A stretch of DNA of 64,000 bases from an uncultured Gammaproteobacteria bacterium (lineage in GTDB: Bacteria; Patescibacteriota; Patescibacteriia; UBA9934; CAMTUG01), in contig CAZPQJ010000006.1 in assembly GCA_964588955.1 (NCBI GenBank), forward strand, positions 3,580-67,579, given 5' to 3'. The notes under the pieces were generated by a model. That model worked only from the letters and a program-made list of their open reading frames with translations. It had not been told where the DNA came from and did no database searches. Of this stretch, positions 3,473 through 59,900 are shown piece by piece (position 1 is the first letter of the stretch; each line of letters opens with the position of its first letter). A program made the position numbers and the translations under genes.

Positions 3473-4660
3473 ATGGACGCCGTTTTGAGCGTTACGGACT
3501 TTTTGAAGTTAGCCACCGAAGTGCTGCGCTTGAATATACAAAGTGGGGCGTTTGCTGTGGAGGGGGAGGTATCTGGCTATACGGTGAAAGATGGCAAGTG
3601 GATTATCTTTTCGTTGAAAGATGAGGCGGACGCGGCTTCGCGGTTGAAGTGTTTCGCTACCACCTTCAAGGTTTCTGGTTCTTTCGAGGATGGAATGAAA
3701 GTACGTGTTTGGGGATCACCAAGTGTGACCAAATGGAGCGAGTTGCAAATCAACGTCGAACGTATGGAGCCGGTGGGCGAAGGGGCGCTCAAGCGGGCGT
3801 ACGATTTGCTCAAAAGCAAACTTGAAGCGGAAGGATTATTTGACGCGGCGCGCAAGCGACCGATTCCTAAGTTTCCCGAACGGATTGGCTTGATTACTTC
3901 AAGCGATGCCGCCGCTTACGGAGACTTTTTGCGTATTTTGAATAATCGTTGGGGAGGAGTACGTGTCATCCACGCCGATGTGCGCGTCCAAGGTGCTTCG
4001 GCTGTTGAACAAATCCTCTCCGCCTTTTCGACCCTTTCCGCCCTTCCTATCGATCAACGTCCTGAAGTGATTGTCCTCACTCGCGGCGGTGGATCCCTGG
4101 AAGATTTGCACGCGTTTAACGACGAGCGGGTTGCGCGTGCTGTTTACGGTTCGACCATTCCCGTCGTTGTTGGTGTTGGTCACGAGCGGGACGAGTCGTT
4201 ATGTGATTTCGTCGCCGATGTGCGTGCCTCTACGCCGAGCAATGCCGCGGAGCGTGTGGTGCCCGATCGCCAGCAGATTTTGTATAGTTTGAAGATGATG
4301 GTGGAGCGACAGGGAGATACGTTGCATCGCGCCATCGACACGGGGCGCTCGGTGGTGCAAACCTACGATCGGGTGACGGGCTATTTTATGGATCGGCAGA
4401 AAACAAAAGTGGATGGCGTGGTTCAGCGTTTGCTCATGCAGTCTTCCAGTTGGATTGGGGGTATGGGCCAGCGCATCGATGGCTATGAACGTTTGTTGCG
4501 CAACCTAGATCCGACGCGCGTGCTGAGCCGTGGGTACTCGATTGTGACGTCTGGATCGAAGGTGGTGAAAGATGCGAGCAGCCTTGATCCGGGAGACGAC
4601 ATTACGGTACAATTCGCCCGTGGATCGGCTGAAGCGAGAGTTGAAAAGACGAAAAACTAA
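3473..4660 (+). CDS. xseA: exodeoxyribonuclease VII large subunit
   Basis: It has an OB-fold N-terminus. A central VIVLTRGGGSLEDLHAFNDERVARAV...PVVVGVGHERDESLCDFVADVRASTPSNAAE block is the conserved XseA catalytic region. The xseB gene follows. Confidence 0.85.
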   Translation: MDAVLSVTDFLKLATEVLRLNIQSGAFAVEGEVSGYTVKDGKWIIFSLKDEADAASRLKCFATTFKVSGSFEDGMKVRVWGSPSVTKWSELQINVERMEPVGEGALKRAYDLLKSKLEAEGLFDAARKRPIPKFPERIGLITSSDAAAYGDFLRILNNRWGGVRVIHADVRVQGASAVEQILSAFSTLSALPIDQRPEVIVLTRGGGSLEDLHAFNDERVARAVYGSTIPVVVGVGHERDESLCDFVADVRASTPSNAAERVVPDRQQILYSLKMMVERQGDTLHRAIDTGRSVVQTYDRVTGYFMDRQKTKVDGVVQRLLMQSSSWIGGMGQRIDGYERLLRNLDPTRVLSRGYSIVTSGSKVVKDASSLDPGDDITVQFARGSAEARVEKTKN

Positions 4661-4780
4661 TCTTTTAAAAACTAAACAAATACGAATGTCTAAAATCTAA
4701 ATCGGTTTAAACCCTTTAGAATTTAGTCTTTCCGATTTTGTTTGGACCTTCGTTTTTGAGATTTTAGTGTTTATAACTAT
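4661..4780. repeat. dispersed AT-rich modular repeat, self-complementary copy (modules ctttagaatttagtctttcc + gattttgtttggacctt)
   Basis: The same modules recur at 28705-28747 in swapped order, and related modules recur at 20761-20806 and 21964-22092. The two halves of the element are reverse-complementary (ctaaaatctaaatcgg ... ccgattttgtttgg...gattttag). It is inserted between xseA and xseB. Confidence 0.5.
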
Positions 4781-4984
4781 ATGCCATCAAAAAAAGAGAT
4801 CAATTTTGCTAAAGCGTTTGAGGAGCTCGAAGCCATCACCGAATGGTTTGAGCGCGACGGAGCTGACCTCGACGAAGGACTTAAAAAATTTGAGCGCGGC
4901 TTAGAGCTCGCCAAACAGTGCAAAGAAAAGTTGTCTGAAGTAGAGAACAAAGTCGAAACGATTAAGAAAAAATTTGTCGAATAA
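4781..4984 (+). CDS. xseB: exodeoxyribonuclease VII small subunit
   Basis: It is 67 aa with FEEALAELEAI-type helices (AFEELEAITEWFERDGADLDEGLKKFERGLELAKQCKEKL). It lies immediately downstream of xseA. Confidence 0.8.
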   Translation: MPSKKEINFAKAFEELEAITEWFERDGADLDEGLKKFERGLELAKQCKEKLSEVENKVETIKKKFVE

Positions 4985-5127
4985 TATGAAGGGCTATTCT
5001 AAAGCCGCGGCCCACAAAGGCAAAGTCGCTTATCGGACACCGTCGCGTATGCGACCGGTTACCATGAAGCCGATGAATAAGATCAAGATGTTCGATAATC
5101 AGAAGTTTGGTAAGTTGGATACATAAT

Positions 5128-5814
5128 ATGGCGACGTTTTTGCTGTCTGTTGGAGGATCAACGATTGTACCGGGAGGGAAAGTGAATGTGGAATTCTTAA
5201 AAGGGTTGCGTAAGCTTGTGGTGGAACGAGTGAAACTCGGAGATAAGTTTGTCATTATTTGTGGTGGCGGAGGAACATGTCGGGAGTATCAAGGGGGATT
5301 GAAGGAAATCATTAAACCGACAGCCAATGATCTTGACTGGCTGGGTATTTATACGACACATTTGAACGCGCAACTCGTTCGTTTCGTGTTTGGAAAGCTT
5401 GCGCATCCGGAGCTTGTGAATGATTACAAGACGTTCAATCCGAAAACGTGGAAGGGTGCCGTTGTCGTTGGTGGGGGGTTGAAGCCGGGTGGATCGACGG
5501 ATACAAACACAACATTGTTTGCGAAAAAGACGGGCGCCAAAATGATTATCAACATTTCCAACGTCGATTATTTGTACACCAAAGATCCACGCAAATTTAA
5601 AAATGCCGAACGCATTGGTGAAATTAGCTGGAAGAATTATCGCAAGATGATGGGCGGCAAATGGACTCCGGGGATGAACACACCGTTTGATCCAATTGCT
5701 TCCAAGCTGGCGGATCAAGCCAACATCGATGTTCTCCTTGTCGGATCGGACATTAAAAATTTGAGCAACGTGTTTTCTGATAAGCCGTTTAAGGGAACGG
5801 TTATTCATCGCTAG
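5128..5814 (+). CDS. pyrH: UMP kinase, archaeal/amino-acid-kinase type
   Basis: MATFLLSVGGS...VIICGGGGTCREY...VVVGGGLKPGGSTDTNTTLFAKKTGAKMIINISNVDYLYTKDP matches the carbamate-kinase-fold UMP kinase. The start is chosen at the second Met (5128); the ORF track starts at 5107. Confidence 0.7.
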   Translation: MATFLLSVGGSTIVPGGKVNVEFLKGLRKLVVERVKLGDKFVIICGGGGTCREYQGGLKEIIKPTANDLDWLGIYTTHLNAQLVRFVFGKLAHPELVNDYKTFNPKTWKGAVVVGGGLKPGGSTDTNTTLFAKKTGAKMIINISNVDYLYTKDPRKFKNAERIGEISWKNYRKMMGGKWTPGMNTPFDPIASKLADQANIDVLLVGSDIKNLSNVFSDKPFKGTVIHR

Positions 5815-22129: not shown

Positions 22130-22900
22130 ATGGATCACTTGTCCCGTGAGCTCATCCATTTGGGGCTCTCTGAAAAAGAAGCGGCGGTGTACACGGCCGC
22201 GCTGCAGCTTGGACCCGCCCCGGTGCAAGACATTGCCGAGCTCTCGCAAGTGAATCGCGCCACCACCTACGTGATGATCGAGATGTTGGAGAAGCGCGGG
22301 CTCATTTCTAGCAGTCAAAAAGACAACAAACGCATTTTTATTGCCGAAGCGCCGGAACGCTTGCTCTCCCTTTTGCGCGTACAGAAAAAAGAGTTGGAGG
22401 AACAGGAACAAGAGTTGGTGCAATTGCTGCCCAAGTTGAATGCCTTGTTTAACCGTGCTGGTGAAAAACCGGAAGTGCGCTATTTGGAAGGTCCGGAAGG
22501 ATTAGAAATGTTGCGCCGTGGGTTTGAAGGGCTGGAAGGGGAGACGGTGCAGATGATCGGCTATGATGCGTTTGTGAAAAGCATGGCCTTTGACGAAACG
22601 GTGCAGCACCGCGAAACACTGAAGAAAAAAGAAGCGCCGATTCGCGCTTTGCTAATTACCGAACGCTCGCGTGAAGAATTAGCGCCGCAGTTTTTGGAAA
22701 CGCTTGGCGCGGGATTTGATTTTCGCTTGGTGCCACCGAGTACCTTTCCGTTTTCTGTGCAAGGCGAAGTAACCGTGCGTGCCGATAAAATTGATTTGTT
22801 TACCTACGCCGCCACGCCACTAGCCATTGAAATCCGTTCGTCCATGTTGGCCGATGTCCTGCGCGCGTTGTTTGAAGTGGCTTGGATGGGAGTGAAATAG
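22130..22900 (+). CDS. TrmB-family transcriptional regulator
   Basis: The N-terminal wHTH is LGLSEKEAAVYTAALQLGPAPVQDIAELSQVNRATTYVMIEMLEKRGLI, followed by a coiled coil and a C-terminal sensor-like domain. Confidence 0.6.
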   Translation: MDHLSRELIHLGLSEKEAAVYTAALQLGPAPVQDIAELSQVNRATTYVMIEMLEKRGLISSSQKDNKRIFIAEAPERLLSLLRVQKKELEEQEQELVQLLPKLNALFNRAGEKPEVRYLEGPEGLEMLRRGFEGLEGETVQMIGYDAFVKSMAFDETVQHRETLKKKEAPIRALLITERSREELAPQFLETLGAGFDFRLVPPSTFPFSVQGEVTVRADKIDLFTYAATPLAIEIRSSMLADVLRALFEVAWMGVK

Positions 22901-22926
22901 CTCGCTTTTTTATGCGTTCTGAAATA

Positions 22927-22964
22927 CAAAAATCTCTGCTGGGGAGAACAGAGATTTTTGTTGT
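22927..22964. terminator. rho-independent terminator
   Basis: caaaaatctctgctggggagaacagagatttttgttg is a perfect 11-bp palindromic stem with A-run and T-run on both sides. Confidence 0.55.
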
Positions 22965-23055
22965 CTTAGAGACCATGAGTCAAATCGTAATTGTCTAACT
23001 CACGGCCTCAGTTGATGCTGGTGGGAGAGTGTCCCATCCGGCGGTCGGAAGGCGT

Positions 23056-23274
23056 TCAACGGCCTTGGTGTTTTCGTTCCAAGTAGCCGTCCGCGTAGAT
23101 CACCACCAGGTCAAGCGTTTGGCAGGTCTTCTGCCAAAACGACTGGTCGGGTTTTTTCCACGCGGCACGGACGAGGCTCACGAAGAGCGCGATCCGACTC
23201 GGGTACTTTCCCGGTACGAACACTTCATGATGTGTGTACTCGGGGTTCTCGGCGAGAGGTATCTCTTTTTTCAT
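23056..23274 (-). CDS. hypothetical protein (72 aa) in high-GC islet
   Basis: MKKEIPLAENPEYTHHEVFVPGKYPSRIALFVSLVRAAWKK... It has sensible composition, lies in tandem with the preceding small gene, and has no recognisable family. Confidence 0.4.
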   Translation of the reverse strand: MKKEIPLAENPEYTHHEVFVPGKYPSRIALFVSLVRAAWKKPDQSFWQKTCQTLDLVVIYADGYLERKHQGR

Positions 23275-23290
23275 TTGTCCTCTTGGGTGT

Positions 23291-23434
23291 TTCAGAGCAC
23301 CCGATCGGCCAGGCTGATCAGCAGGGCGATGGTGAAGCCGAGACCAAGGAACCTCGGCCAGCGGCGAGGCTTCTGATCCTCAACCTCCACGGGGTGGTTA
23401 AAGTGAGGGACTTTCACGTACCGAACGCGATCCA
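23291..23434 (-). CDS. hypothetical small membrane protein (47 aa)
   Basis: MDRVRYVKVPHFNHPVEVEDQKPRRWPRFLGLGFTIALLISLADRVL was found by hand because it is below the ORF-track cut-off. It is preceded by a conserved leader that is shared with the gene at 23590..23979. Confidence 0.35.
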
Positions 23435-23520
23435 TGAGATTTCTCGTGGTTGAGGGAGATATGCTTCGTCCCGAACGATTCGAGCTTCCGCGAAAGAAGT
23501 GGCGATGGTGTCGTCAGTTC
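23435..23520 (-). promoter_or_regulatory. conserved leader/operator-like module (copy 1 of pair)
   Basis: The minus-strand sense is ttcgcggaagctcgaatcgttcgggacgaagcatatctccc...ATG. It contains the near-palindrome cgaacgattcg. Its paralog is 23980..24060 (~80% identical over ~60 nt). Confidence 0.35.
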
Positions 23521-23589
23521 TTTTGCGGAGGGGATCGATGTTCTCGATCCCCGCCATGACCGTCAGCTCGGCCGAGACGTCTTGCTGAA

Positions 23590-23979
23590 TTAGAACGGAT
23601 CCCGGGGGAGCCTGCAACGGTCCTCGAAGAACCTTGCCGTCTTCCCGTACTCGAACGGATTTGTACGCAGGGCGCACAGAATCCGCTGGAAGACCATCCA
23701 TTTGGTCTCCGGGACCCAAATCTCCCATTCCTGGTTCCACAGGATGAGCCTACAGGGGATCCGCAGTTCATCCGCGTACTGAACCAGATAGTGCCACTGC
23801 ACTTCATGCTGTGCGAATTCCCGACCATCTCGGGTCGGGCGGACGTCGCCACCGCGCGCCGCTTGCGCACGGGTCTCCTGTTGGAGCCTCGTTGTGGCGA
23901 ACTCGACGCTGTCCCCCTTCTTGAAAGGGGTGACGAGCTCCTTGATCCAGTTCGGGGCATCGAAAAGAGGGTGGGCCAT
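23590..23979 (-). CDS. hypothetical protein (129 aa) in high-GC islet
   Basis: The start is set at MAHPLFDAPNWIKEL, preceded by caggagtctgacATG, which has a good AGGAG ribosome-binding site. The upstream extension to 24108 lies inside the repeated leader. Confidence 0.45.
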   Translation of the reverse strand: MAHPLFDAPNWIKELVTPFKKGDSVEFATTRLQQETRAQAARGGDVRPTRDGREFAQHEVQWHYLVQYADELRIPCRLILWNQEWEIWVPETKWMVFQRILCALRTNPFEYGKTARFFEDRCRLPRDPF

Positions 23980-24060
23980 GTCAGACTCCTGTGGGGGGAG
24001 AGGTGCTTCCGCTCGAAGGGTTCGAGTTTCCGCGAATGAAGCGACGATCTGTGGGGTGAG
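23980..24060 (-). promoter_or_regulatory. conserved leader/operator-like module (copy 2 of pair)
   Basis: ttcgcggaaactcgaacccttcgagcggaagcacctctccccc...ATG is paralogous to 23435..23520. Confidence 0.35.
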
Positions 24061-24199
24061 ATCTTCGACTCGTTCGCGGTGAGGTCTATCAGAATTGATG
24101 GACCTCACGTTGAGACGTTGGATGACGCAAGGGAGTTTTCACTGCTACCTCACTCATCCGCGAAATCCGCATTTTTACCGGTTGCGGTTCCGGAGCCTT

Positions 24200-24952
24200 T
24201 CAGGCGGCGAGGCGGGCGAGTTCGGCCGCGATGACCCGCTTGACCTCGTTGGCGCGCGGGTGGCGCTCGACCATGGCCTTCAGGTCCTTGCTGGTCGCCG
24301 GCAGGGTGGCGCCCAGCTGGTGCCCCTTGGCCTTGACGGCCATGAACACCTGGGACACCTGGTGGCGGTTGCTGAGGCGCGTCCAGGCGACCTCGACCTG
24401 TGTCGTCAGGGGCTCGACGACCGCCTCCTCGATGATGAAGTCGGCGTCGTTGGGCACCGGCGCGCACATGGCGATCGGCGCCTCGACCTCGAGGTCGGCC
24501 ACGGTCGGCTGGCGCTTGAGGACGTTGAGCCCGAGCTTGCGCTCGCAGGTGATCCGCAGGTTGCGGATCGACCGCTCGGCCTTGGGGTCGGTGCCGCTGG
24601 CCTTGAGGAGCCAGACGGCCACGCGACCCTTGCCGATGAACTCGAGCCCGAGGACGTCGCGGCGGATCGCCACGACCCAGGTGGGGTTCCGCCTCCCCGA
24701 CGCCATGGCGCCGAGGATCTGGAAGCCGTCGCCCATGACGGCGGCCATCCAGGGGCGGTTCGAGAACTCGCTCTCGATCACCATCCCCGGCGCCTTCTGC
24801 TCGGCGTCGAACTCCCGCAGGGCGAGCTCACGCCGTCGGTCGGCCACGAAGGCCTCCTTGGCCCGCTCCGTGGCCATCGGGTTCGTGCGGACGAACCGGC
24901 TGAGGGCGGCGGCGAGGGACGGGGTGAGGGACTTGATGATGCTGGAACGCAC
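24200..24952 (-). CDS. hypothetical protein (250 aa), largest gene of the high-GC islet
   Basis: The composition is balanced (K/E/R/A) with a coiled-coil-like N-terminus (ATERAKEAFVADRRRELALREFDAEQKA). The overlapping plus-strand ORFs are R/G/D/H-rich antisense artefacts. No family is recognised. Confidence 0.45.
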   Translation of the reverse strand: MRSSIIKSLTPSLAAALSRFVRTNPMATERAKEAFVADRRRELALREFDAEQKAPGMVIESEFSNRPWMAAVMGDGFQILGAMASGRRNPTWVVAIRRDVLGLEFIGKGRVAVWLLKASGTDPKAERSIRNLRITCERKLGLNVLKRQPTVADLEVEAPIAMCAPVPNDADFIIEEAVVEPLTTQVEVAWTRLSNRHQVSQVFMAVKAKGHQLGATLPATSKDLKAMVERHPRANEVKRVIAAELARLAA

Positions 24953-25092
24953 GGGGGACTCCTGGATGGGGGGGCTTTGGTGTCTATGTCCGGACCTACA
25001 GATTGCTTTCCGGATCTTAGTACCGAATCACGTGTTCATAATTCGATCCTTAGATGCGGAGGGGACCGAGTGCCAGTCCCCTCGAAGCGCGT

Positions 25093-25281
25093 TCAAAAGC
25101 CGGGGCGGTGGGAAGCCCGAGCGATCTCCTGGCGGCGAACCGCCTCGGAGAACTCCCGGCTTCCTACGTGTCGCCGACCAAGGAGATCTTGGATCTCCCG
25201 ATCGGCGACACGCTCATCCCGCGATCCTCTTCCGGCTCGATCGAGCCGGTCGAGAATCGTGTTCTCGATGTTCCAATTCAT
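25093..25281 (-). CDS. hypothetical protein (62 aa)
   Basis: MNWNIENTILDRLDRAGRGSRDERVADREIQDLLGRRHVGSREFSEAVRRQEIARASHRPGF has its start at ggagggaccATG, a strong ribosome-binding site. The longer track ORF starts inside the conserved leader. Confidence 0.4.
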   Translation of the reverse strand: MNWNIENTILDRLDRAGRGSRDERVADREIQDLLGRRHVGSREFSEAVRRQEIARASHRPGF

Positions 25282-25372
25282 GGTCCCTCCGGGATCGGTG
25301 ATTGAGGAGCGAAATTGCTGCCTCACCGAATGACACAATCTTTTGGATTCTGTCTTTTGGTGAAGGGCAGCG
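25282..25372 (-). promoter_or_regulatory. conserved ~90-nt leader with 10-bp inverted repeat (copy 1)
   Basis: The minus-strand sense is gctgcccttcaccaaaagacagaatccaaaagattgtgtcattcggtgaggcagcaatttcgctcctcaatcaccgatcccggagggaccATG. It pairs cttcaccaaa/ttcggtgagg. Its paralog is at 25537..25628. Confidence 0.35.
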
Positions 25373-25413
25373 CGTTGAGTTCGCGCCGCCCGACGAAGGT
25401 CAGGCCCTGGGTC

Positions 25414-25536
25414 CTACCAACCCTTGGGAGGCTTCACGAGAAGCCTCCACAGGATGATTGCGAGTGCCGTCGCGATCGCGAAGTCCAGGAACGGGGAGCA
25501 GAAGCTCCCCCAAAAGATATCGTAAATCGTCTGCAT
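25414..25536 (-). CDS. hypothetical small membrane protein (40 aa)
   Basis: MQTIYDIFWGSFCSPFLDFAIATALAIILWRLLVKPPKGW starts at cctggagggatcATG. The long upstream extension in the ORF track is G/R/P-rich junk. Confidence 0.35.
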   Translation of the reverse strand: MQTIYDIFWGSFCSPFLDFAIATALAIILWRLLVKPPKGW

Positions 25537-25628
25537 GATCCCTCCAGGATCTGTGGTTGAGAGAGCTGAAGTGCTCCTCACCAAATGACAGAATCGTTTT
25601 TGATTATGTTCTTTGGTGAGGGGCGGCT
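25537..25628 (-). promoter_or_regulatory. conserved ~90-nt leader with perfect 10-bp inverted repeat (copy 2)
   Basis: gccgcccctcaccaaagaacataatcaaaaacgattctgtcatttggtgaggagcacttcagctctctcaaccacagatcctggagggatcATG pairs cctcaccaaa/tttggtgagg perfectly, with a 27-nt spacer. Confidence 0.35.
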
Positions 25629-25661
25629 GTGAAGCAGCCGCCTCAGAGAGTCGGGGACCGA

Positions 25662-25868
25662 TCAGGCCGCGCGGCTCGTCGATCGGGATTTGTACGGCGC
25701 GAACGGTCGCGCCGACTGGGTCGCCACGGTCGGCCGGTGGCGGGTTGTCGGCATCGGCGCATTGCGCACGATGCCGATGATGTACGCGACGAGGCCGAGC
25801 CCCACCGCGGTGAACAGGACAGCGACCAGGCCGTCCCCAAAAGCCGACATCCATTGCTGGACTTCCAT
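25662..25868 (-). CDS. hypothetical small membrane protein (68 aa)
   Basis: MEVQQWMSAFGDGLVAVLFTAVGLGLVAYIIGIVRNAPMP... has one TM helix and a GC3-rich minus-strand frame. Confidence 0.35.
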   Translation of the reverse strand: MEVQQWMSAFGDGLVAVLFTAVGLGLVAYIIGIVRNAPMPTTRHRPTVATQSARPFAPYKSRSTSRAA

Positions 25869-26347
25869 TCGATACCCCCGAAGGAGTTCTACTGAGCGAA
25901 GGGATTCCGCTCATGCATCTGGAGGGTAGGGCCTCAGTGACCTGCCCGAAGGCTGGTGTGGGGCATGACCGACGAGGGTGTAATGAGTGAGCGAGGCCCA
26001 GTCATTACATTCGCCGATCGATCCTCCTTCGCTCTTTGCAGAGCTTCGGAAGGACTTACTCTCTCCTCCATGTGCATGAACGCAAAACCGCTTGTCTGCC
26101 TTGATCTGTTCTAGAGAGATCAAGTCAAACAAGCGGTAACGAACGGGCACTTGGCTTACCTAAAGATAGATAGCCGTAGCCGTTCGTGTTGACTCTCTCC
26201 CCAGAGAATATATTCAGTTTTGAAGCCGCGTTGATGAGCTCGTAACTCATCTTCGCGAGGGATTACTCTACCACTTTTTTGCCCTTTTGTCAAGAGTTCA
26301 GCGCCACTTCATAGCTAATATTAGCCACTTTTTTCCACCCTCTTTTT

Positions 26348-27202
26348 GTGCTATACTTAGTCAATATGACGGAATCCGCCCATCAGCTGATTGGACACGC
26401 TCGAGCACTCGATGTGCTTAACCGTCTGCAAACCAACGGCCGGTTGGGGTCAGCTTTGTTGATTGTGGGAGCCAATGGGGTTGGCAAGCGCGCGTTAGTG
26501 GAAATCGTTTTCGGCTCACTCGCGACTAATCCCAATGCCATGGTGATTGAACGGGCGTTGAACGATAAAGACGAACTGAAAAAGAATATCAGCATTGATC
26601 AAGTGCGTGATCTGGTTGCTCGCATGGGTTTGAGTACTTTTGGGACGGGAAAAAAGATCGGCTTGATTGACGGCGCGGAATTCTTGTCGATGGATGCTTC
26701 AAACGCCTTGTTAAAAACGTTAGAAGATCCTACCGGCGACACGCTCATGATTTTGCTGGCCACGTCGACGCAAACGATTCCCGCGACGGTTTTGTCGCGT
26801 TGCCAAACAATCTATTTGCCGTTAGTCGCTCGTGCCGAAATTGTTCGCGCGCTCACGGAGCGTGGAGCGAGCGCGACCGTGGCGAACGAGATCGCCGAGT
26901 CTGCCTGCGGCCGTCCGGGACTGGCGCTGCGACTTCTTCAGAACCCCGAGTTGTTGGCACAACGTCGCGAGCAGGCGCAGCAAGTCAAACAATTGATCTC
27001 TGCACCACTCGCGGTGAAACTCGGACGTATTGGCGAATATACAAAAGCAGACAAAGCGGAACTGGAAGCTACACTCGATACGTGGGAAACAACCCTTCAT
27101 GCCGACGGTCAACATCTGCTACTGAAGAAGTTGATCCGCGCCCGTGCCGCCATTCGTCAAAACGTTCATCCAACCCTGGCACTTGAACACGCCTTTCTTT
27201 AA
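26348..27202 (+). CDS. holB: DNA polymerase III delta' subunit
   Basis: It has an AAA+ box (LIVGANGVGKRAL), LLKTLEDP (sensor-1 region, consensus LLKTLEEP) and SRCQ (arginine finger / box VII). Confidence 0.75.
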   Translation: MLYLVNMTESAHQLIGHARALDVLNRLQTNGRLGSALLIVGANGVGKRALVEIVFGSLATNPNAMVIERALNDKDELKKNISIDQVRDLVARMGLSTFGTGKKIGLIDGAEFLSMDASNALLKTLEDPTGDTLMILLATSTQTIPATVLSRCQTIYLPLVARAEIVRALTERGASATVANEIAESACGRPGLALRLLQNPELLAQRREQAQQVKQLISAPLAVKLGRIGEYTKADKAELEATLDTWETTLHADGQHLLLKKLIRARAAIRQNVHPTLALEHAFL

Positions 27203-46958: not shown

Positions 46959-48506
46959 TCAGAGGTGGGCGGAAGATTTCTCAGTGGGAAGTCGACGGTT
47001 GTCGCAGCGGCCGCGACTGGCGAAGTCGTGCCAGATTTGTTCGCGTGTTGCGTCCATCGTACTGCCGATGTAGTAGAAGTGTCGGACGTTCTTGAGGCGT
47101 TTGCTGAGCATTTGCCAGTCGGCGAGCTTGCCGCACATGTCGGTGGTGGGCGCTTCGCGGTGCTGGTAGATGGCGAGAAGGATGACGTAGTTGGTGAAGA
47201 GCCGGAATTCATCCGGGGTCTTACCGTCCAGCTGCCATTCGCTCGCCAAACGCATCTCTTCATCCAGCAAGACGCTTTCTGCGGTGTAGAAGGGCACGCG
47301 ATCAATGCTGCTCTTCACCCACATACCGCTCGCGCAAAGGGCGAGGGCGCTGAGAACGTAGGCGTACGTATTGATACGGGAGGTGGGAATGTGTTCCTTC
47401 AGGAGAGGGGCGGTGGCGTTGAACCAGATGGCGGCGACGGTCATGGTACAGATCGCGGGCATCAGGCAGTAACGAACACCAATTGCGGCATTGTGCATGG
47501 CGTAGAGGGTTCCGGGCAGGTTGCCAAGAATCCAGCCAGCCGCGATTCCGGCGAGCCCGAGCGACAGGCGACGATTGGTACTCCACATGGCTCCGGCTGC
47601 GATCAAGACAGCGCCAGTTCCGACGTAACCGAGCGTGGCAATGTGCCAAACAATACTGTCGGGTACATAGACCATCCGCGAGTAACGCGGTCCGATCGTT
47701 TGTCCGATTTGAAAGAGCTGGGTTCCGAGTTGGGCGCAGAAGAGCGCGATGTTCTGCGGGTCCTGGATGAGGCGTCCAAGCGCCAAGCGGACGACCGGAA
47801 TCGGCATGATCGACGCGTAGAGGCACCAGTGGATCACAGCTCCCACGCCTGCCGCGCATCCGATCGTGAGAACCGCGCGCTTGGGTTGTCCGAGAAGGAG
47901 AACCACGACGGGAAACCACAGGCCGTTGATCGTTGCCGTCGGTTTGGCAAAGCCCGCGCACAGGGTGAAGGCGAGCGCGGTAAGCGCCATGCCACGAGGG
48001 GTGTTGCGCGACGTGAGCACGTTGAGTCCGATGATCAGCAGAAACGTACCGAGAATGTCGGACAGATCCGACGCCCAGGGAACGCTATCGGCGAACAGTG
48101 GATGGGTGGCAACGAGGGTGGCGCACCCCAGACTGTAGACCGGCTTGCCGCTCACCCGTTTCACGCAGGCGTAGACACCGAAGATCGTTCCGATGAATAC
48201 GCCGACGTTGAGCAGGCGAAACGGAACGATGCTCGTACGTCCGAACATCCAGGCCGTCAGATCGTGCAAGGTTGCCGCGAGCGGCGACCAAGGCACCGGA
48301 TTGCGGGCATACCCCGGAACCGTATAGGTCCCCGCGGACCATTCCTGCAAAATGCGCGAGAGCGGATGGGGATCGTTTGTGGGGGCGATGATGGCCGTGA
48401 CGTCGTCGAGCACGCCGCTCGGAACCGCGGTGTAGGCACCGGCGGCGTAGACACAGACGATACAGACGAGCACCAGCCAACAAAACCGGGTGGCATTCTT
48501 GGACAC
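46959..48506 (-). CDS. polytopic membrane protein, GT-C-type glycosyltransferase-like (ArnT/PMT-like)
   Basis: It has ~12 hydrophobic helices and an early extracytoplasmic loop with acidic residues. The opposite-strand 519-aa ORF is R/G/D-rich junk. The family call is tentative. Confidence 0.5.
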   Translation of the reverse strand: MSKNATRFCWLVLVCIVCVYAAGAYTAVPSGVLDDVTAIIAPTNDPHPLSRILQEWSAGTYTVPGYARNPVPWSPLAATLHDLTAWMFGRTSIVPFRLLNVGVFIGTIFGVYACVKRVSGKPVYSLGCATLVATHPLFADSVPWASDLSDILGTFLLIIGLNVLTSRNTPRGMALTALAFTLCAGFAKPTATINGLWFPVVVLLLGQPKRAVLTIGCAAGVGAVIHWCLYASIMPIPVVRLALGRLIQDPQNIALFCAQLGTQLFQIGQTIGPRYSRMVYVPDSIVWHIATLGYVGTGAVLIAAGAMWSTNRRLSLGLAGIAAGWILGNLPGTLYAMHNAAIGVRYCLMPAICTMTVAAIWFNATAPLLKEHIPTSRINTYAYVLSALALCASGMWVKSSIDRVPFYTAESVLLDEEMRLASEWQLDGKTPDEFRLFTNYVILLAIYQHREAPTTDMCGKLADWQMLSKRLKNVRHFYYIGSTMDATREQIWHDFASRGRCDNRRLPTEKSSAHL

Positions 48507-48646
48507 GGAACCTCCGAACAGTAAGGGAATTTTACCTTATCAACTTTTTCCTCATCTGGCAACAGTGAGGGGTGAGGGGGCGAGTGCGACGTCCTCTTTT
48601 TTCTGGTACAGTTCTCTTAAGTTGTAAATAGGATAATCTTTTTTCT

Positions 48647-50939: not shown

Positions 50940-53900
50940 ATGCTATCTTTTTTGCGTGGCAGAGGTTCTCAGCATATCGCGGGTGTCTTTTTCGTCTGCG
51001 TTTTTTTATTTTTTGGGAACTTGTTCTTTACCCATCAGGCCCATGCCGCGGTTGTTACCTGGACAGGTTTAGGGCTCGATGGACAATGGAATACCGGCAC
51101 GAACTGGAGCACGGGATCAAAACCAGCAGCAGCAGATACAGCGACTTTTGATGGAACCTGCGGAGTTAACTGTGCAGTAACCATCAACACCAACGTCAGT
51201 ATTACCGCCATTAACATGGCTTCTGGATACACGGGAACAATCACGCAAAGCAATACAAACACCGTGGCGTTAACGGGGTCGTTTACTCTTACGGCGGGAA
51301 CCTATGTGGGTTCGACGCAAACTTTATCGATTGCTACAACGTATACACAGACAGGAGGAACGTTTACAGGGGGTTCCGGAACGGTGACGCATACAGGGGC
51401 GTTTACCTTAAGCGGCGCGGGTGCTGTTTACACTGCTTCCAGCGGCACAACCATTTTTAGTAGTAACTTTACCCATTCAGCTGGTACGGGAACATTTACG
51501 CATAACAGCGGTTTGGTCAGTATTACCGGAGGAAGCACAAGGACATTTGATTTTGCTACCAGCGAAACGTTTGGTAGCGTTACTTTGAATAAAACAACGG
51601 CCACGAGTTTAACCATTGCTTCTGGTGACACCATGATCGTGACAGGCACGAGTACGCTTACGGACGGAAATCTTACGACTGGTACATGGGACGCACGGGG
51701 AACGACGAGTTGGGCCTCAACATTTGACGGTGGAACTGGGACGCTGCTCCTGGGAGGTTCGGCGGTTGTTGCAGCGACACTAAACTCCGGGAACACCGCT
51801 GTCAACTTGAGCATCACGAACGCCAACGTCACTGTTGATACCGCGGGTTCGGGAACAGTCGCGGTGGGCGCATTAACCATGTCTGCCGGTGTTCTGAACG
51901 CGAATGCGGCAACCATGACCTATTCTGGCGCCGTGGCACTCAGCGGGGGAACGTATAACGCGCCAACGTCCGGAGCAGGAACAACGACGTTTAGTTCGAC
52001 ATTTGACCAAACATTGACGGGTGTGTTTGCGGGCGGTACGAATGCAGTCACGCACACGGGTGCGTTTACGCTGAGCGGTGCGGGGGCGACCTATACGGCA
52101 ACAAGCGGTACAACAACATTTAGCGCGGGGTTTACACATACAGCCGGTACAGGCACATTCACTCACAATAATGGTTCCGTAAAGTTTTCCGGTTCAGCAT
52201 CAACCACCAACGTCGCTACAAGCGAAGCGTTTTATAACGTGGAGCTGGCGAAGAATAACGCTACCTTGTTGACTGTTTCTTCCGGAGATACTTTGGTGGT
52301 AAATAACACACTCACACTTACCAATGGTGGCTTTGGGACGGGAACCGTCGAGGCGCTTAATACGATTTCGTTGAACGCGGGTTGGGACGGGGGAGGCGGA
52401 ACGTTGTTAATTGATGGCGTCAATACGCAAACCCTTGCTCTCAACGGAGGTGGTGCGGCTATCGCGAGTACAGTTACCTTAAACAACGCGAATTTTACGT
52501 TTAGTGGTACCGGTGCTGGAACATTGACCTTTAGCGCCGTAAACCTCCAAGCTGGAACCATTGATGCCACGGGATACAGCATGACGTTTAGTGGCGCCTA
52601 TAACCAATCCGGCGGAACGTTTACGGGAGGAAGCGGAACGGTGACGCATTCCACGTTCACCCTTTCAAATGGTACATACACCGCAACAAGCGGTACAACA
52701 AACATTTCAACAACATGGACGCACTCAGCCGGAACATTTAATCACGGGAGCGGAACGATTTCTTCTACCGGCGGCACGTTCACCATGACAATTGTTGATC
52801 AAGACGTGTTTTATAACGCCACATTTACTGTAACGAATGCAAACACACGAACCATTTCTGGAGGAACGTTGATCGTTGCCAACACATTCTATTTCAGCAG
52901 CGGTGGCGGTGCGCTCACAGGAACGTTTGATCTGCGCGGTGACATTACGGGAGGTGGGACAACATTTCCTGGGACAAGAACTATCTCCATTACGGGAACT
53001 GCAGATCAAACGTGGAGTATTCCTTCTGGATTCAGTGGAACATTTACTGTTGATAAAAGTGCGGGGACAGTGAATCAAACAACCGCTATTACAACAGGAA
53101 CTTGGACCTTTACAGCAGGGACCTGGAACGCGAATGATTCCGGATTCACCCCTAACTCAACTTACACCCACAATGGAGGAACGATGAATTTTGGAGGATC
53201 CACGGTCACTTTAGGAAACTTTACTTTTTCCGCTGGGACAGTTAATGCGACAACGGCAACCATGACGGTTAATGGAAACTGGACGCACACAGCGGGCGGT
53301 ACGTTTAACCACAACAATGGAAGCGTGAGTATCTCTACGGGGACAACCGCTGTTGATGTCGCGAGCACAGAGACGTTTTATAATTTGACAGTATCTCCAT
53401 CGAGTACAAGAACGATTACGATTGCCAACGGTGATTCTTGTATCGTGTTAGGAACGCTTACGCTAAGTGGAAGCAATGGAACGATCGCACAAACAACAAA
53501 ACCAGCCGAGGGAAGTTTTCAATTATATGGCGACCTAACGTTAGGCGCGAGTTTTGCTAATGCGACGACAACATTTGGTTTTTATGGTAGCGCTACGCAG
53601 CACCTCACGGAGGGGGCTGCAAAGGCGATTGGAAATATTACCATTGATAAATCGGGCGGATCAGTCATTTTGGATTCTACGCTCGACGACGGGAATACCA
53701 TGACCGTAACGGTAACGAATGGGACGCTCGACCTGAATGGCAACGCCATCTCCATGAACGCCACGAGCTCAAAATTGATCATTAATGCGGGCGGCACGCT
53801 CAAACTTCAGGGTGGCGAAACGATCACCACCACGGGCGCCTCCTATCCACAATGGGACGCGGGAAGCACAATCTATTATTACGGTACGGGAGCCGCTTAT

Positions 53901-56900
53901 ACGCTCAAAAATTATTCCGGATATAAAAATGTTGTCCTCGACGGCACGGCGGCAACGACGGTATTTACCTTGCCTGCTACTACATCGATCGCGGAGAATC
54001 TCACCATCACCAACGGTATACTTTCTCTCGCGGGCTTTGGTCTTACCGTAAGCGGCACGTTTAGTAATAATGATAACGTCCGTCAAATCGGATCGGAAAC
54101 TGTTTCTTTAACGCAAGATGTCGATTCAGGAACGTGGACGTATCTTGGGGATGGCGACGCCGCAGCAGATACCTACACGCTGGTAGATTTTGGGGTGACA
54201 GACTATTATAACCTGATTGTTGCGACGACTGATGCAGTGGACATCATTCAATCCGCTGGCGCAAAAGCTATTGCCGGTACGTTGGTTATTTCGTCGGGAA
54301 CGTACGATGCCAATGGACAAACAACCGCCACGACGGGGCTCGTCACGCTTTCGGGGGGAACGTATACGGGGGGATCCGCGACGCAAACATTTAACGCGGG
54401 GTTAACCCTTACAGGCGGAACATACACCGGAAGTTCAGGTGCAGCCGACGTCAATGGAACACTGACGCTTACTACCGGAACTTTTACCGCACCAACGTCG
54501 ACGACCATCTCCGGTGATTTTGTGAAAGGAGCGGCGACGTTTACTCACAATAGCGGTACGGTGACGTTCGATGCGAATACTAATCACAGCATTACCGGAA
54601 GTCCAAGTTGGAATTCGCTAACCTTACAGGACAGCAACGATAACGCCACCGACGTTGTTTTGACCATTGAAGCTGGATCCACGCAGACGATCAACGGAAC
54701 GTTAACGCTGGATGGACTTGATGCTTCGGATCGATTGAATATTGTTTCCTCATCACCAACGACAGCGTCGACGTTTGATTTTGAAGGCGCTTCAACGTTC
54801 AGTGGTGATTTTCTCGATATCACGGACAGTGTGGTAACAGATAATTCATCGGGCGTCAGCGCGCCGATCAACCCGTCGAATTCCGTAGAGGGTACGAATA
54901 CGACGAACTGGTTTTCTTCCACTCCCGCCGGCATTACGGTCTCCGCCATTTCCGGCAACACCACAGAAGCCGGCGGCACGGCGACGTTTACGGTCGTGCT
55001 AGACTCTCAGCCCTCTAACGACGTGGTCATCGGCATTTCTTCCAGCGACACCAGTGAGGGAACGGTTTCCGCCGCTTCGCTTACCTTTACCAACGGAAAC
55101 TGGAGCACGCCGCAAACGATTACCGTCACGGGTGTGAATGACGACTTGGACGACGGCGACATTGCTTACACGGTTATAACGGCCGCCGCCACCTCGGCCG
55201 ACGGCAACTACAACGCCATCAATCCCGCCGACGTCGCGGTTACCAACACCGACAACGATACTTCTGGCTTCACTGTTTCCGCGATCTCGGGAAACACCAC
55301 GGAAGCGGGTGGAACAGCCACCTTCACGGTCGTGTTGACCGCCCAGCCAACCGCGGACGTTTCTATTGGCATTACGTCTGATGATACGACGGAAGGTACT
55401 GTCTCCGCGCCAAGCCTCACGTTTACCGCAGGAAATTGGAGCACGCCGCAGACTGTTACGGTTACTGGTGTCAATGACGATTTGGATGATGGAGACATTG
55501 CCTACAATATTATTACGGCTGCCGCTACCTCGGCCGACGGCAACTACAACGCCATCAATCCCGCCGACGTCGCGGTTACCAACACGGACAATGACGCCTC
55601 GGGCTTTACGGTTTCGGCAATCTCGGGAAACACCACAGAAGCCGGCGGTACGGCAACAGCAACGATTGTGTTGACCGCCCAGCCAACGGCCGATGTCACC
55701 GTCGGCATTACCAGTTCAGACACCACCGAAGGTACGGTGTCGCCCGCGTCGGTTACGTTCACGAGCGGTAATTGGTCAACACCGCAGACAATCACTGCTA
55801 CGGGTGTAAATGACGATCTTGATGATGGAGATATTGCCTATTCCTTAGTCACGGCTGCGGCGAGTTCTGCCGACGGGAATTACAACGGTATCAACCCTGC
55901 TGACGTAAACGTCACCAACACCGACAACGATACTTCTGGCTTCACTGTTTCCGCGATCTCGGGAAATACCACGGAAGCGGGTGGAACAGCTACCTTCACG
56001 GTCGTGTTGACCGCTCAGCCAACCGCGGATGTTTCTACGGGTATTTCTTCAAATGACACAACCGAGGGTACAGTTTCGGTGGCCAGTCTCACGTTCACGA
56101 GCGGCAACTGGGCAACGCCACAAACCGTCACGGTTACCGGCGTGGATGATTTGGTCGACGATGGCGATGTTGCTTATGCGATTGTAACGGCCGCTGCAAG
56201 TTCGGCCGACGGCAACTACAACGCCATCAATCCCGCCGACGTCACGGTTACCAACACGGACAACGACACAGCTGGCGCAACAGCAAGCGCTATTTCCGGT
56301 CACACCACAGAAGCGGAAGATACAGCGACATTTACGGTCGTTTTGACGGCGCAGCCAACGGGCGACGTGAGTATTCCACTTTCGTCTTCGGACGCGACGG
56401 AAGGCGCCGTGAGCCCTGCGAGTCTTACCTTCACTAACCTCAATTGGGACACGCCGCAAACGGTGACGGTGACTGGGGTTGATGATTCACTTGATGATGG
56501 CGATGTTGCGTTCAGTGCCTTGCTCGGGGCGATCACTTCGACCGATGGGGCGTACAGCGGTTTGAATCCTGCCGACGTAACTGTCATCAACGACGATAAC
56601 GACACTTCCGGCTTCACCGTTTCCGCCATTTCCGGTAATACCACGGAAGCCGGCGGCACGGCTACATTTACCATCGTGTTGACCGCTCAGCCAACCGCGG
56701 GCGTCACCATTGGGCTCAGCAGCTCGGACACGACAGAGGGTACGGTTGCGGCGAGTACATCGTTTACCACGGTGAACTGGAACACTCCAAAAACGATTAC
56801 CGTGACGGGTGTTGATGATGTTATTGACGACGGCACGGTTGCCTATTCCATTATTACCGCCGCCGCCAGTTCTGCCGATACCAACTACAACGGTTTGAAC

Positions 56901-59900
56901 CCTGCCGACGTTTCTGTCTCCAACACCGATGATGATGCGGCTGGATTTACTGTCTCGGCGATTTCTGGCAACACCACGGAAGCAGGAGGAACGGCAACCT
57001 TCACGGTGGTGTTGAATACGCAGCCGGTGGCGGACGTCATTATTCCGTTGTCCTCCAACGACACCACGGAAGGTACGGTCAGTCCATCGAGCCTCACGTT
57101 TACAAATCTCAATTGGGACACGCCACAAACAGTAACGGTTACGGGGGTGAATGATAATCTTGACGATGGAGATATTGCCTATTCCATTATTACCGCTGCG
57201 GCGACATCTGATGATGCTCCATACAGTGGTTTGAATCCTGCCGACGTCGCGGTTACCAACACGGATAATGACGCCTCCGGCTTTACGGTTTCGGCGATCT
57301 CAGCAAATACGACAGAAGCTGGTGGCACGGCTACCTTCACGGTCGTCTTGACTGCCCAGCCGACTGCAGACGTATCCGTTGGTTTGTCTTCCAACGACAC
57401 GAGCGAAGGCACGGTTTCTCCCGCATCGCTCACGTTTACGAGCGGTAACTGGTCAACACCGCAGACGGTAACGGTTACCGGTGCTAATGATGATCTGGAC
57501 GACGGCGATATTGCTTACTCCGTCGTCACGGCGGCAGCCAGTTCGGCCGACGGCAACTACAACGCCATCAATCCCGCCGACGTCGCAGTTACCAACACGG
57601 ACAATGATGTTTCTGGCGTCACAGTCTCCGCGATCTCTGGTAACACCACGGAAGCCGGCGGCACGGCAACCTTTACGGTGGTTCTGGATGCTCAGCCAAC
57701 AGGGGACGTGGTTATTGATTCCGCTACGGATGACGCAACGGAAGGCGTTGTTACTTCTGGGGCAATTCTGACCTTCACTAGTGGTAACTGGTCAACGCCG
57801 CAAACGGTTACGGTTACCGGTCAAGACGACACGCTCGACGACGGCAACATCGCCTATCATATTGTGGTGACCACAGACACTGTCGCCACCAATGATGATT
57901 TGTACGATGCTGTTAATCCAAGTGACGTAAACGTAACAAATACGGACAACGACACTTCAAGCGTCACGGTTACCCAAAGCGGCGGTACGACTTTGCTAAC
58001 GGAAGGGGGAGCCACAGACAGCTATACCCTTGTTTTGACCGCGCAACCTACCGACGATGTTGTCGTAACAATCACACCAAATGCGCAAGTGGAGATAAGT
58101 GTTCCTACGGTTACCTTTACGAATGCTAATTGGTCGACCCCGCAAACGGTTACCGTCACTGCGGTGGATGATGCCGATATTGAAACGTCTCCGCATAGCG
58201 GCGTGGTAAGCCACACGGTGGCTTCGACGGATCTTAATTACAACGGGGCTGTCGTCGCTTCAGTGAGCGCTTCCATTACCGACAACGACCATGTTGGTGT
58301 CACGGTTTCCGTTATCTCTGGTGACACCACGGAAGCCGGCGGCACGGCAACGTTTACCGTTGTACTGCAAAATATTCCTACCGATGACGTGGTGGTTGCT
58401 TTGGCAAGTTCTGACGAAGGGGAGGGAATCCTTGACCAAACGACTCTTACATTCACCATGGCTAACTGGGACACGCCGCAGACAGTTACAGTTACCGGTG
58501 CGGATGATTTCCTGGATGATGGCGACGTAGGGTATACCGTGCTGGTTGGTCTGATCACTTCTGCTGATTTTCGGTATAACGGATTTGATCCAGGTGACGT
58601 CGCCGTCACTAACACAGATAATGACACCTCTGGTTTCACGGTCTCTGCCATCTCTGGTAACACTACGGAAGCTGGAGGTACGGCAACCTTTACAGTGGTG
58701 TTGACTGCGCAACCAACCGCGGATGTGTCTATTGGCATTTCGTCCGATGATACGACAGAAGGTACAGTCTCTGCGGCAAGTTTGACGTTTACAAGTGGTA
58801 ACTGGTCGACACCGCAGACAATTACGGTGACAGGTGCCAACGACGACCTCGATGATGGCGATATCGCCTACAATATTATTACCGCTGCCGCTACCTCTGC
58901 TGACGGCAACTACAACGGTATCAATCCCGCCGACGTCGCCGTCACTAACACAGATAATGACACCTCTGGTTTCACGGTCTCTGCCATCTCTGGTAACACT
59001 ACGGAAGCTGGAGGTACGGCAACCTTTACAGTGGTGTTGACTGCGCAACCAACCGCGGATGTTTCTTTCAGTGTCACATCTTCGTCTCTTGATGATGGGA
59101 CGGTTTCGACGGCTAGTCTCACGTTTACCAGTGGTAACTGGTCAATACCGCAAACCGTCACCGTTACTGGCGTGGATGATTTGATCGACGACGGCGACAC
59201 AGATTACGTGATTATGTTGTCCGCGGCCGTTTCCGACGATCTACTCTATAATGGACAAGATCCGAACGATGTAAGTGTCACGAACACCGACAATGACACA
59301 GCGAGCGTAAGTATTACGCAACCGGGTGGTATTACTTCAGTGGCGGAAGGCGGTCCCACCGATACCTATTCCGTTGTTTTGACCTCGCAGCCGACCGCAG
59401 ATGTCTTTATTGATGTCATACCGAATGATCAAATTACAACCAATACGCTCTTTCTGACGTTCACGCCAGGCGACTGGAATGTCCCGCAAACCGTGACCGT
59501 CACTGCTGTTGATGATGATGTTGCCGAAGGATCCCACACGGGATTGATTGATCATAGTCCTGCCTCTGGCGACGCCCTGTACGGCACCATGCTGATTGAT
59601 TCAGTTACCGTGTCTATTGCCGATAATGACACAGCGGACGTGTTTGTAGATGGTGATCCGGGTAACACCACAGAAGCTGGGGGAACAACAACGTTTACGG
59701 TTGTCTTAACATCTTCGCCCACAGCAGACGTGATTATTTCTGTGACTAGTGCAGATGTGACGGAAGCGACGGTTAATCTTTCCAGCCTTACGTTTACTTC
59801 TGGAAACTGGTCGACGCCGCAAGTCGTAACGATTACCGGGGTAGATGATTTAATCGATGATGGAGATGTTGCTTACACGATCGAACTTGGTTCAACCGTC

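Follow-up and report, generated by a model that had tools for sequence, protein, structure and literature searches.

The DNA analyzed here is a stretch of 64,000 nucleotides (nt), in the following called the window, from contig CAZPQJ010000006.1 of assembly GCA_964588955.1, which is registered as an uncultured Gammaproteobacteria bacterium and is placed in the Patescibacteriota in the GTDB lineage. Between the genes trmB and holB, the window carries an islet of ~3.3 kb on the minus strand (22926-26293) with a raised guanine-plus-cytosine (GC) content, which amounts to 0.585, 0.668, and 0.599 in the three 1-kb bins from 23001 to 26000 compared to 0.51 in the remaining window. The islet comprises seven open reading frames (ORFs) of 68, 40, 62, 250, 129, 47, and 72 amino acids (aa), all of which are located on the minus strand. 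An identical islet joined to holB is present in independent Logan assemblies of two runs, and thus the islet is not a chimera. The unit is laid out as one promoter (26293-26265), a head RNA of ~370 nt, the seven ORFan genes, and a terminator (22926-22961). The present analysis deals with the non-coding elements between these genes, for which an earlier note had described two pairs of similar, palindrome-bearing leader sequences (A and A' as well as B and B') in front of four small genes and had suggested a shared repressor, operator, or riboregulator circuit. As outlined below, these leaders belong to one family of two-hairpin modules, which recurs in related genomes.

Two-hairpin modules between the islet genes

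Folding of each intergenic region of the islet yielded five modules, one per long intergenic region, and each of the five regions forms two abutting hairpins (z = -2.1 to -6.9). The junction between the 47-aa and the 72-aa gene is the sole gene pair without a module in between. The modules share a common order, which starts 3' of the stop codon of the preceding gene with a very stable GC-rich hairpin 1 that lacks a U-tract, continues with an abutting, longer, and imperfect hairpin 2 with a variable tip that differs in length and sequence among the copies, and ends with a pyrimidine-rich spacer of 39-57 nt, the ribosome-binding site (RBS), and the start codon. None of the hairpin 1 elements was flagged in a terminator scan, and the direct T/U-tract that together with a GC-rich stem-loop makes an intrinsic terminator is missing from every one of them; the sequence next to them is C/A-rich, and T-tracts are present instead at 22926-22961 and 26079-26137.

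The four leaders were recovered on the minus strand where the earlier note had placed them. A and A', for which it had given an identity of ~80% over ~90 nt, share 82% mean column identity over 120 columns in a MAFFT alignment and 73 of 90 identical positions by blastn (81%, E = 4e-17), including three indels. B and B' are similar as well, with 78% identity in a 58-nt ungapped core, 77% mean column identity (MAFFT), and 42 of 53 identical positions by blastn (79%, E = 2e-8 to 3e-8); all of these values are well above 60%. The inverted repeat of 10 bp, CCTCACCAAA...TTTGGTGAGG, occurs once in the 64 kb (25576-25621; 0.00 expected in shuffles). It is perfect in A', as had been described, and A contains one A.C and one U.G position. 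The repeat continues into a longer hairpin, of which it forms the base; the arms of this hairpin measure 23 nt, are 83% complementary, and enclose 6 nt as a loop. The B motif TTCGCGGAARCTCGAA has exactly two sites in the window (23479-23494 and 24021-24036), and the start-proximal box GATCCYGGAGGGAYCATG was found only at the two A-type starts (0.13 expected). The GC-rich hairpin with which each module starts had been overlooked, and instead of two pairs there are five related modules, including a third type (C, 25010-25083) in front of the 250-aa gene.

According to its holB homologues, the host belongs to the candidate phyla radiation (CPR; Patescibacteria). For comparison, we used the contigs of the closer homologues, designated L007, L008, L010, L011, L012, L013, and L014. 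Two abutting hairpins were also obtained for those island intergenic regions of L007, L008, and L014 that were folded. The B-type core, which consists of hairpin 1 (GGGGATCGA..TCGATCCCC) and hairpin 2 (CCGCAAAAGAG...CTCTTTCGCGG), is present in one copy in L007, in two copies in L014, and in four copies in L008, which are 79-91% identical to the window copies (85-91% for module B versus the copies of L008 and L014), in genomes whose holB products are 46-61% identical and whose island proteins are unrecognizable. Conservation of the modules greatly exceeds that of the proteins encoded on either side. Two of the L008 copies, B1 and B2, are 94% identical to each other. The A/A' hairpin can be aligned with hairpins in front of the second gene of L008 and in front of the ~250-aa-family genes of L008, L014, and L007, and the A/C-type hairpins share an apical GAATC-loop-GATTC.

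The stems of hairpin 2 change in a compensatory manner. In the seven-copy alignment of the B-type lower stem, 88% of the cells are paired (40-52% in slid controls), double-sided changes occur at 4 of the 11 pairs, and the covariation score exceeds that of 499 out of 500 shuffles, whereby one stem position is mismatched in five of the seven copies. For the A/C-type hairpin 2, 82.5% of the cells are paired (slid controls 30-48%), 8 of the 20 pairs show double-sided changes (17 cells), the score is higher than in all 500 shuffles, and two stem positions are mismatched in five of the six copies. The covariance models (CMs) R1 and R2 were searched against 139 kb comprising the window and the relatives, where the matches of both models are confined to the trmB-holB islands and the gene strand always scores best. 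R2, which was built from the A/C-type alignment, recovered module C of the window, which was not part of its training set (25007-25062, E = 4e-4), as well as one B-type copy, and thus the module subtypes are related. Homologues of module C lie in front of the 250-aa-family genes of L008, L014, and L007, and in all four genomes the C-type module precedes a gene of this family, whereby the preceding gene differs.

No reading frame is open across all module copies, and the third copy of the window as well as L008_C are stopped in all three frames. Together with the three indels between A and A', this excludes a coding origin, and a coding duplication within a longer ORF was rejected on these grounds. 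As the earlier note had proposed, different cargo genes are indeed preceded by duplicated, non-coding cis-modules. These modules are constrained, since copies exist in the syntenic islands of other genomes next to unrecognizably different proteins. A/A' and B/B' are within-operon paralogues of one module family that are kept similar by constraint and possibly also by gene conversion.

Two side observations concern the B-type modules. In the window (23500-23516, plus strand) and in L008 (4670-4684 and 5862-5876, plus strand), the tip of the B-type hairpin 2 together with the CTCTTTTGCGG after it was flagged as terminator-like for the antisense direction, and the modules might thus stop antisense transcripts as well. 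In L008, two plus-strand calls of the source annotation (144 and 217 aa) overlap three minus-strand B-type modules at 4280-5367, and these calls are probably miscalls in GC-rich DNA. A minus-strand start with GGAGA in front lies near 4605 of this contig.

Head RNA, promoter and 3' border

The head promoter is the only consensus sigma-70 promoter within the unit on the gene strand and is oriented divergently from holB. Besides this promoter, a promoter scan of the minus strand from 22800 to 26400 yielded only a weak match, located at the 3' border, and the consensus scan revealed no internal promoters in the islands of L014, L008, and L007. The promoter hexamers are invariant in seven genomes (alignment A3), and the same promoter was found in L014 and L007.

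The sequence downstream of the promoter is predicted to encode an undescribed conserved structured RNA of ~370 nt, which consists of two domains (Table 1). The full 394-nt stretch folds with z = -8.4, and RNAalifold predicts 90 pairs for the full head RNA, 32 of which show compensatory changes. A long-range helix (CATGCAcaTGGAGG / CCTCCAgATGCATG) closes domain 2, within which the boxes TGGAGGAGAGAGTA and CAGCCTTCGGGCAGGTCACT are invariant. An Rfam search of the window and the six related loci at the gathering threshold returned tRNAs only, and in E-value mode nothing credible was obtained for 22800-26400, the best match being SgrS with 22.8 bits (threshold 37) inside a coding region. The head RNA co-occurs with a variable island in six relatives, and both are lacking in L011.

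At the other end of the unit, the 3' border is 83% identical to L007 5044-5132 and L008 2553-2606 and shows compensatory stem changes. The terminator loop TTCTCCCCAG (22938-22947) is conserved in the window, L007, L008, and L013, and reads TCTCCCC in L014. The invariant CTGGGGAGA in hairpin 26188-26208 of the head RNA is complementary to this loop, a match that is suggestive only. C-rich tracts (CTCTCCCC) in front of some start codons resemble the terminator loop; between the G-rich boxes of the head RNA and the C-rich tracts of the leaders, short complementary matches are only ~3-fold enriched. Loop-loop pairing of the head RNA with the terminator loop, or pairing in the manner of a small RNA with its target, appears possible.

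Syntenic islands and their ORFan proteins

At least six related CPR genomes carry their own version of the trmB-holB operon site. L007, L008, and L014 have the gene order DUF4012, mreB, glycosyltransferase, trmB, island, holB, BNR protein, frr, and glyS in common, and the same order is found in part in L010, L012, and L013. In each of these six, the trmB-holB interval is occupied by its own set of unannotated ORFans, which are mostly located on the minus strand, and the recurring parts of an island are the sigma-70 promoter, the ~370-nt RNA, the ORFan genes, and the 3' border with the terminator. The protein identities to the window across the relatives are 95-97% for MreB, 68-89% for the ribosome recycling factor, 56-71% for TrmB, and 46-70% for the holB product, and the island proteins are unrecognizable between genomes with the sole exception of the ~250-aa family. 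Module similarity and host relatedness are uncoupled, in that L014 has the lowest holB identity and the best identity for the modules and domain 2.

On first impression, the islet looks like a recent foreign insertion, yet the relatives have an equally GC-shifted island at the same site. The GC content of island and surroundings is 0.55 versus 0.49 in L007 (4320-8000), 0.63 versus 0.535 in L008 (2006-8000), and ~0.60-0.67 versus 0.51 in the window. Since the shift is found in each genome measured, it is a property of the locus and gives no evidence for a recent foreign insertion. Recent horizontal gain from a high-GC donor was thus rejected as the main explanation, given the GC-shifted islands of L007 and L008 and an island of the same layout at this site in L014; rather than a one-off insert, the islet represents the variant that this genome has of an operon present at the same site in the relatives. 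The islet DNA had no match in phage or plasmid collections, and a holB search of species-representative genome contigs returned only a distant Prevotellaceae match.

The coding status of the islet frames is indicated by the third-position GC content (GC3). None of the seven islet proteins gave a significant match to Pfam, PHROG, NCBIfam, or PADLOC; the only rows, both sub-threshold, were Pfam YiaAB for the gene 1 product (E 0.062) and phrog_5466 (E 0.28). The 250-aa and 129-aa proteins returned only self-matches among 5.8 billion proteins, and a HMMER scan of 1.8 billion representatives added only a spurious repeat-protein match. PDB sequence searches returned nothing. The 62-aa product had been regarded by eye as a ribbon-helix-helix protein, which is unsupported, since its model of three helices has no fold match in the PDB, and the model of the 250-aa protein is unusable, with a predicted local distance difference test (pLDDT) score of 44.6. 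A family of ~250-450-aa ORFans is present in four islands (Table 1). Its conservation is limited to the N-terminal ~40 residues (MR..LT...AAL...NP..TE..KEAF) and a C-terminal block, with a hypervariable, P/E/A-rich middle in between, and it has no Pfam or PDB relative. As far as these searches reach, no part of the unit matches a curated family.

Table 1. Features of the islet, in the predicted direction of transcription, and counterparts in related islands
Feature	Position	Strand	Remarks
Head promoter, TTGACA-17-(TG)gTAGAGT	26265..26293	minus	10/12 match, extended -10
Head RNA domain 1, ~175 nt	26079..26258	minus	Fold z = -7.6; conserved in six relatives; compensatory stem changes; includes a variable hairpin
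Domain 1 hairpin with conserved loop UUACGAG	26227-26257	minus	
Domain 1 invariant G-rich hairpin TTCTCTGGGGAGAGAGTCAAC	26188-26208	minus	
Domain 1 end, 21-bp stem and T-tract	26079-26137	minus	Intrinsic-terminator-like
Head RNA domain 2, ~190 nt	25889..26078	minus	69-81% identity to relatives
Gene 1, 68-aa ORFan	25662..25868	minus	One predicted membrane helix; GC3 0.84 vs 0.57-0.63 in other frames
Module A'	25537..25642	minus	CM R2 53.4 bits; upstream of 40-aa gene; 39-nt spacer with CTCTCTCAACCAC and RBS GGAGGG
A' hairpin 1, GGCGGCTG-cttca-CAGCCGCC	25622-25642	minus	
A' hairpin 2	25576-25621	minus	20 stem positions, 17 paired, 3 internal mismatches; 6-nt loop
Gene 2, 40-aa ORFan	25414..25536	minus	Hydrophobic
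Module A	25282..25391	minus	CM R2 53.9 bits; upstream of 62-aa gene; 39-nt spacer with RBS GGAGGG
A hairpin 1; hairpin 2	25365-25391; 25321-25365	minus	
Gene 3, 62-aa ORFan	25093..25281	minus	Charged, helical; AlphaFold2: three helices, pLDDT 69.7
Module C	25010..25083	minus	Found by CM R2, 25.8 bits, E = 4e-4; upstream of 250-aa gene; box TCCGGAAAGCAA after hairpin 2, then 57 nt to GTG start
C hairpin 1, GAGGGGAC...GTCCCCTC; hairpin 2	25059-25083; 25010-25059	minus	
Gene 4, 250-aa ORFan	24200..24952	minus	GTG start; GC3 0.97; family kept in four islands
Module B'	24012..24108	minus	CM R1 62.8 bits; upstream of 129-aa gene
B' hairpin 1; hairpin 2; small hairpin CTCGAAcccTTCGAG	24079-24108; 24031-24078; 24012-24026	minus	RBS AGGAG next
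Gene 5, 129-aa ORFan	23590..23979	minus	
Module B	23470..23552	minus	CM R1 79 bits; upstream of 47-aa gene
B hairpin 1, GGGGATCGA-gaaca-TCGATCCCC; hairpin 2, TCCGCAAAAGAA...TTCTTTCGCGGA; small hairpin	23530-23552; 23487-23529; 23470-23484	minus	
Genes 6 and 7, 47-aa and 72-aa ORFans	23056..23435	minus	17 nt apart; 47-aa product with C-terminal hydrophobic stretch
3' border hairpin; bidirectional intrinsic terminator	22964-23016; 22926-22961	minus	
Head RNA and promoter region, window	25889-26293	minus	
Head RNA and promoter region, relatives	L007 6840-7335; L008 7400-7830; L010 325-735; L012 85-510; L013 1085-1590; L014 7525-7945		
~250-450-aa family, relatives	L014 6498-7256; L007 5564-6373; L008 2830-4182	minus	

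Between the operon terminator and trmB, a small gene of 63-75 aa was observed in L008 (2064-2264), L014 (5422-5613), and L007 (4402-4629), in each case on the minus strand, with 36% identity between the L008 and L014 products (E = 1.5e-13). The window is without this gene, and its terminator adjoins trmB directly. Elsewhere in the window, a second GC-elevated stretch (46959-48524; 0.60 at 47-48 kb) carries long overlapping ORFs on both strands, and an ORF of 3635 aa extends from 50940 to 61847.

Possible function of the modules

The function of the modules is something that we infer rather than show. With a probability of roughly 50%, we consider them to be intercistronic elements that act as folded RNA within one long transcript and serve in processing, stability, or attenuation. 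Stems that covary but keep their mismatches fixed point to a single strand that folds and not to an operator in double-stranded DNA. Since the consensus scans detected no internal promoter and hairpin 1 has no T-tract, one long transcript with structured junctions is the simplest arrangement, and the two-turn hairpin 2 with its internal loops along with hairpin 1 as a barrier favors a role at the RNA level. Hairpin 2 would present, with its two turns, an RNase III-type processing or protein-binding signal, hairpin 1 would be left as an exonuclease barrier on the 3' end of the upstream segment, and the cistrons would thereby gain separate levels of stability and translation; alternatively, the hairpins could attenuate transcription in a graded manner. 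Of the suggestions made in the earlier note, the riboregulator half fits best.

In the early operon of phage T7, RNase III hairpins (R0.3-R1.3 type) are located between the genes. The islet modules resemble these hairpins, as well as mRNA stabilizer stem-loops, in being paralogous, imperfect hairpins of about two turns with internal loops at intercistronic positions of what would be one transcript, and a stable hairpin would likewise remain on the 3' end of the upstream segment. For bacterial RNase III, two helical turns as well as internal loops, which restrict cleavage, have been given as reactivity epitopes, and the cleavage products keep hairpins that protect their 3' ends (PMC1540722); the predicted fold of hairpin 2 agrees with this substrate geometry, having 20 stem positions and 2-3 fixed internal mismatches. 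The islet differs from the T7-type hairpins in that there is no sequence similarity, it is a chromosomal CPR operon and not a phage, cleavage is a prediction only, and its module is a fixed abutting pair that is conserved across genomes while the genes diverge. A resemblance in layout only exists to the start-associated sequence (SAS) of Cluster K mycobacteriophages, an RBS-containing box in front of a subset of unrelated genes, which is of unknown function with a suspected role in translation initiation and which is preceded by the extended SAS (ESAS), an imperfect inverted repeat with a short spacer (PMC3203893). In the islet, an inverted repeat with a spacer of 5-6 nt lies ahead of GATCCYGGAGGGAYC-ATG (A and A'), but its arms have 20 instead of 17 nt, hairpin 2 is 39-57 nt away from the start rather than immediately upstream of it, the stems covary, and the islet is not located in a phage genome. 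With up to three mismatches allowed, the 13-bp SAS GGGATAGGAGCCC could not be found in the islet and has six matches elsewhere in the window, compared to 10.2 expected by chance.

Several points weigh against the modules being RNA elements of one transcript. The operon status was deduced solely from consensus scans, and promoters of CPR bacteria may deviate from this consensus. The alignments comprise 6-7 related sequences, so that the covariation statistics are indicative rather than conclusive. Summed over 17 modules, the folding energies of the two strands are nearly equal (-667.5 kcal/mol for the sense and -676.8 kcal/mol for the antisense strand), G.U pairs number 22 on the sense and 28 on the antisense strand, and many fixed mismatches that read A.C in the sense direction would become G.U in the antisense direction. 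These values favor neither strand, and folding as single-stranded DNA instead of RNA would agree with them as well. Furthermore, the terminator-like element 26079-26137 lies between the promoter and the genes, so that read-through must be assumed, and the B-type copy L007 5130-5205 has no downstream gene. A signature search detected no RNase III gene in the 64-kb window, which has little bearing, as the window probably represents a small part of the genome.

The equal stability of both strands would also suit palindromes to which a repressor dimer binds in double-stranded DNA, be it an island protein like the 62-aa product or the neighboring TrmB-family regulator, with an own promoter for each module. 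This is the operator circuit that the earlier note had in mind, and the placement of A and A' ahead of the gene for a small, charged, helical protein and of its neighbor does recall autoregulation. A TrmB-family regulator gene adjoins the island in every genome. Nevertheless, we regard it as unlikely. Recognition of half-sites predicts conserved arm sequences, whereas here the arms vary in a compensatory manner and it is the structure with its fixed mismatches that persists. The scans revealed no consensus promoter in, beside, or overlapping any of the palindromes, and as only 39-57 nt separate hairpin 2 from the start codon, a promoter would not fit downstream of it. A DNA-binding product is not detectable by family or fold among the island proteins, and no small island protein is conserved among the genomes that share the modules. 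It is doubtful, although somewhat more probable, that the modules are weak factor-independent terminators which create a gradient of polarity and are read through with the help of the head RNA, as in processive antitermination. The B-type hairpin 2 has an A-rich 5' arm, a U-rich 3' arm, and a GC-containing upper stem, parts of it are flagged as terminator-like on both strands, and a conserved structured RNA does follow the sole promoter, whereas hairpin 1 is without any U-tract, the upper stem of the A-type hairpin 2 is AU-rich and weak, and the head RNA is unlike any antiterminator RNA in Rfam. Such attenuation would also take place at the RNA level; it overlaps with the reading that we favor and is not separable from it here.

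A different process, which we consider rather improbable, would be cassette recombination, with hairpin 2 folding in single-stranded DNA as an attC-like site of an array that has no integrase or is served in trans. The strand neutrality, the terminator within the head RNA, the gene-less B-type copy, and the mismatch between module and host similarity keep this model alive. Like clusters of attC sites lacking integron-integrases (CALINs), the islands are arrays of small, promoterless ORFans of the same orientation behind one strong promoter, with imperfect, structure-conserved palindromes of fixed unpaired bases and variable tips between the genes, a description that hairpin 2 fits; repeats within one array are often the most alike, as are B1 and B2 of L008, and recombination would explain why the cargo at a fixed chromosomal site is wholly different between close relatives with 95-97% identical MreB. 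However, the hairpin-2 ends (CCGCAAAAG.../...CTTTCGCGG and CCTCACCAAA.../...TTTGGTGAGG, with CCGC.../...GCGG and CCTCACC.../...GGTGAGG) contain neither RYYYAAC / GTTRRRY cores, i.e., R''/R' sites, nor an AAC...GTT pair, every module has an extra GC hairpin, and no IntI tyrosine recombinase or other recognizable enzyme was found among the seven islet proteins (Pfam, NCBIfam, and PHROG), which are flanked by trmB and holB. In addition, the C-type module is linked to its downstream and not its upstream gene, and the gene order is partly kept; the ~250-aa gene and its C-type module are collinear in four genomes, which points to vertical descent with fast divergence and not to shuffling. The further proposal of a mobile-element control region or a toxin/immunity family found no integrase, transposase, or defense match, and the unit occupies the same site in six relatives. 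Dispersed mobile palindromes resembling repetitive extragenic palindromic (REP) sequences, miniature inverted-repeat transposable elements (MITEs), or Correia elements, or else neutral remnants of a recent local duplication, are very improbable. The copies are indeed short, palindromic, repeated, and intergenic, and REP sequences, bacterial interspersed mosaic elements (BIMEs), and Correia elements are likewise palindromes of intergenic regions, which are transcribed along with the genes and influence the stability or processing of the mRNA, but the modules are confined to one operon, with no copy outside the islands in the 139 kb searched. Pattern scans of viral and metagenome contigs for the A palindrome and the head-RNA boxes gave chance matches only (AT-rich phage, eukaryote-like contigs, and a hydrolase gene), and conservation across genomes with covariation argues that the copies are not neutral.

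CPR genomes are small, and, to our knowledge, gene regulation and non-coding RNAs of these bacteria are almost unknown. At the locus described here, a non-coding architecture of promoter, ~370-nt RNA, two-hairpin junctions, and terminator is kept at 70-90% nucleotide identity while the proteins diverge beyond detection, which adds a new candidate RNA family and a new family of intercistronic structured elements. As a long shot, the whole unit would be an undescribed CPR genetic system in which the hairpin junctions are the sites where gene segments are exchanged or diversified; such exchange could be attC-like without a recognizable integrase and is possibly guided by or dependent on the head RNA. 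In a weaker version, the head RNA may represent a novel regulatory RNA class that acts on the operon downstream of it via the G-rich boxes. If segments were exchanged at the junctions, the locus would be a dedicated generator of new small proteins, and it offers a place to ask how fast-evolving small proteins in episymbiotic bacteria are expressed and perhaps generated.

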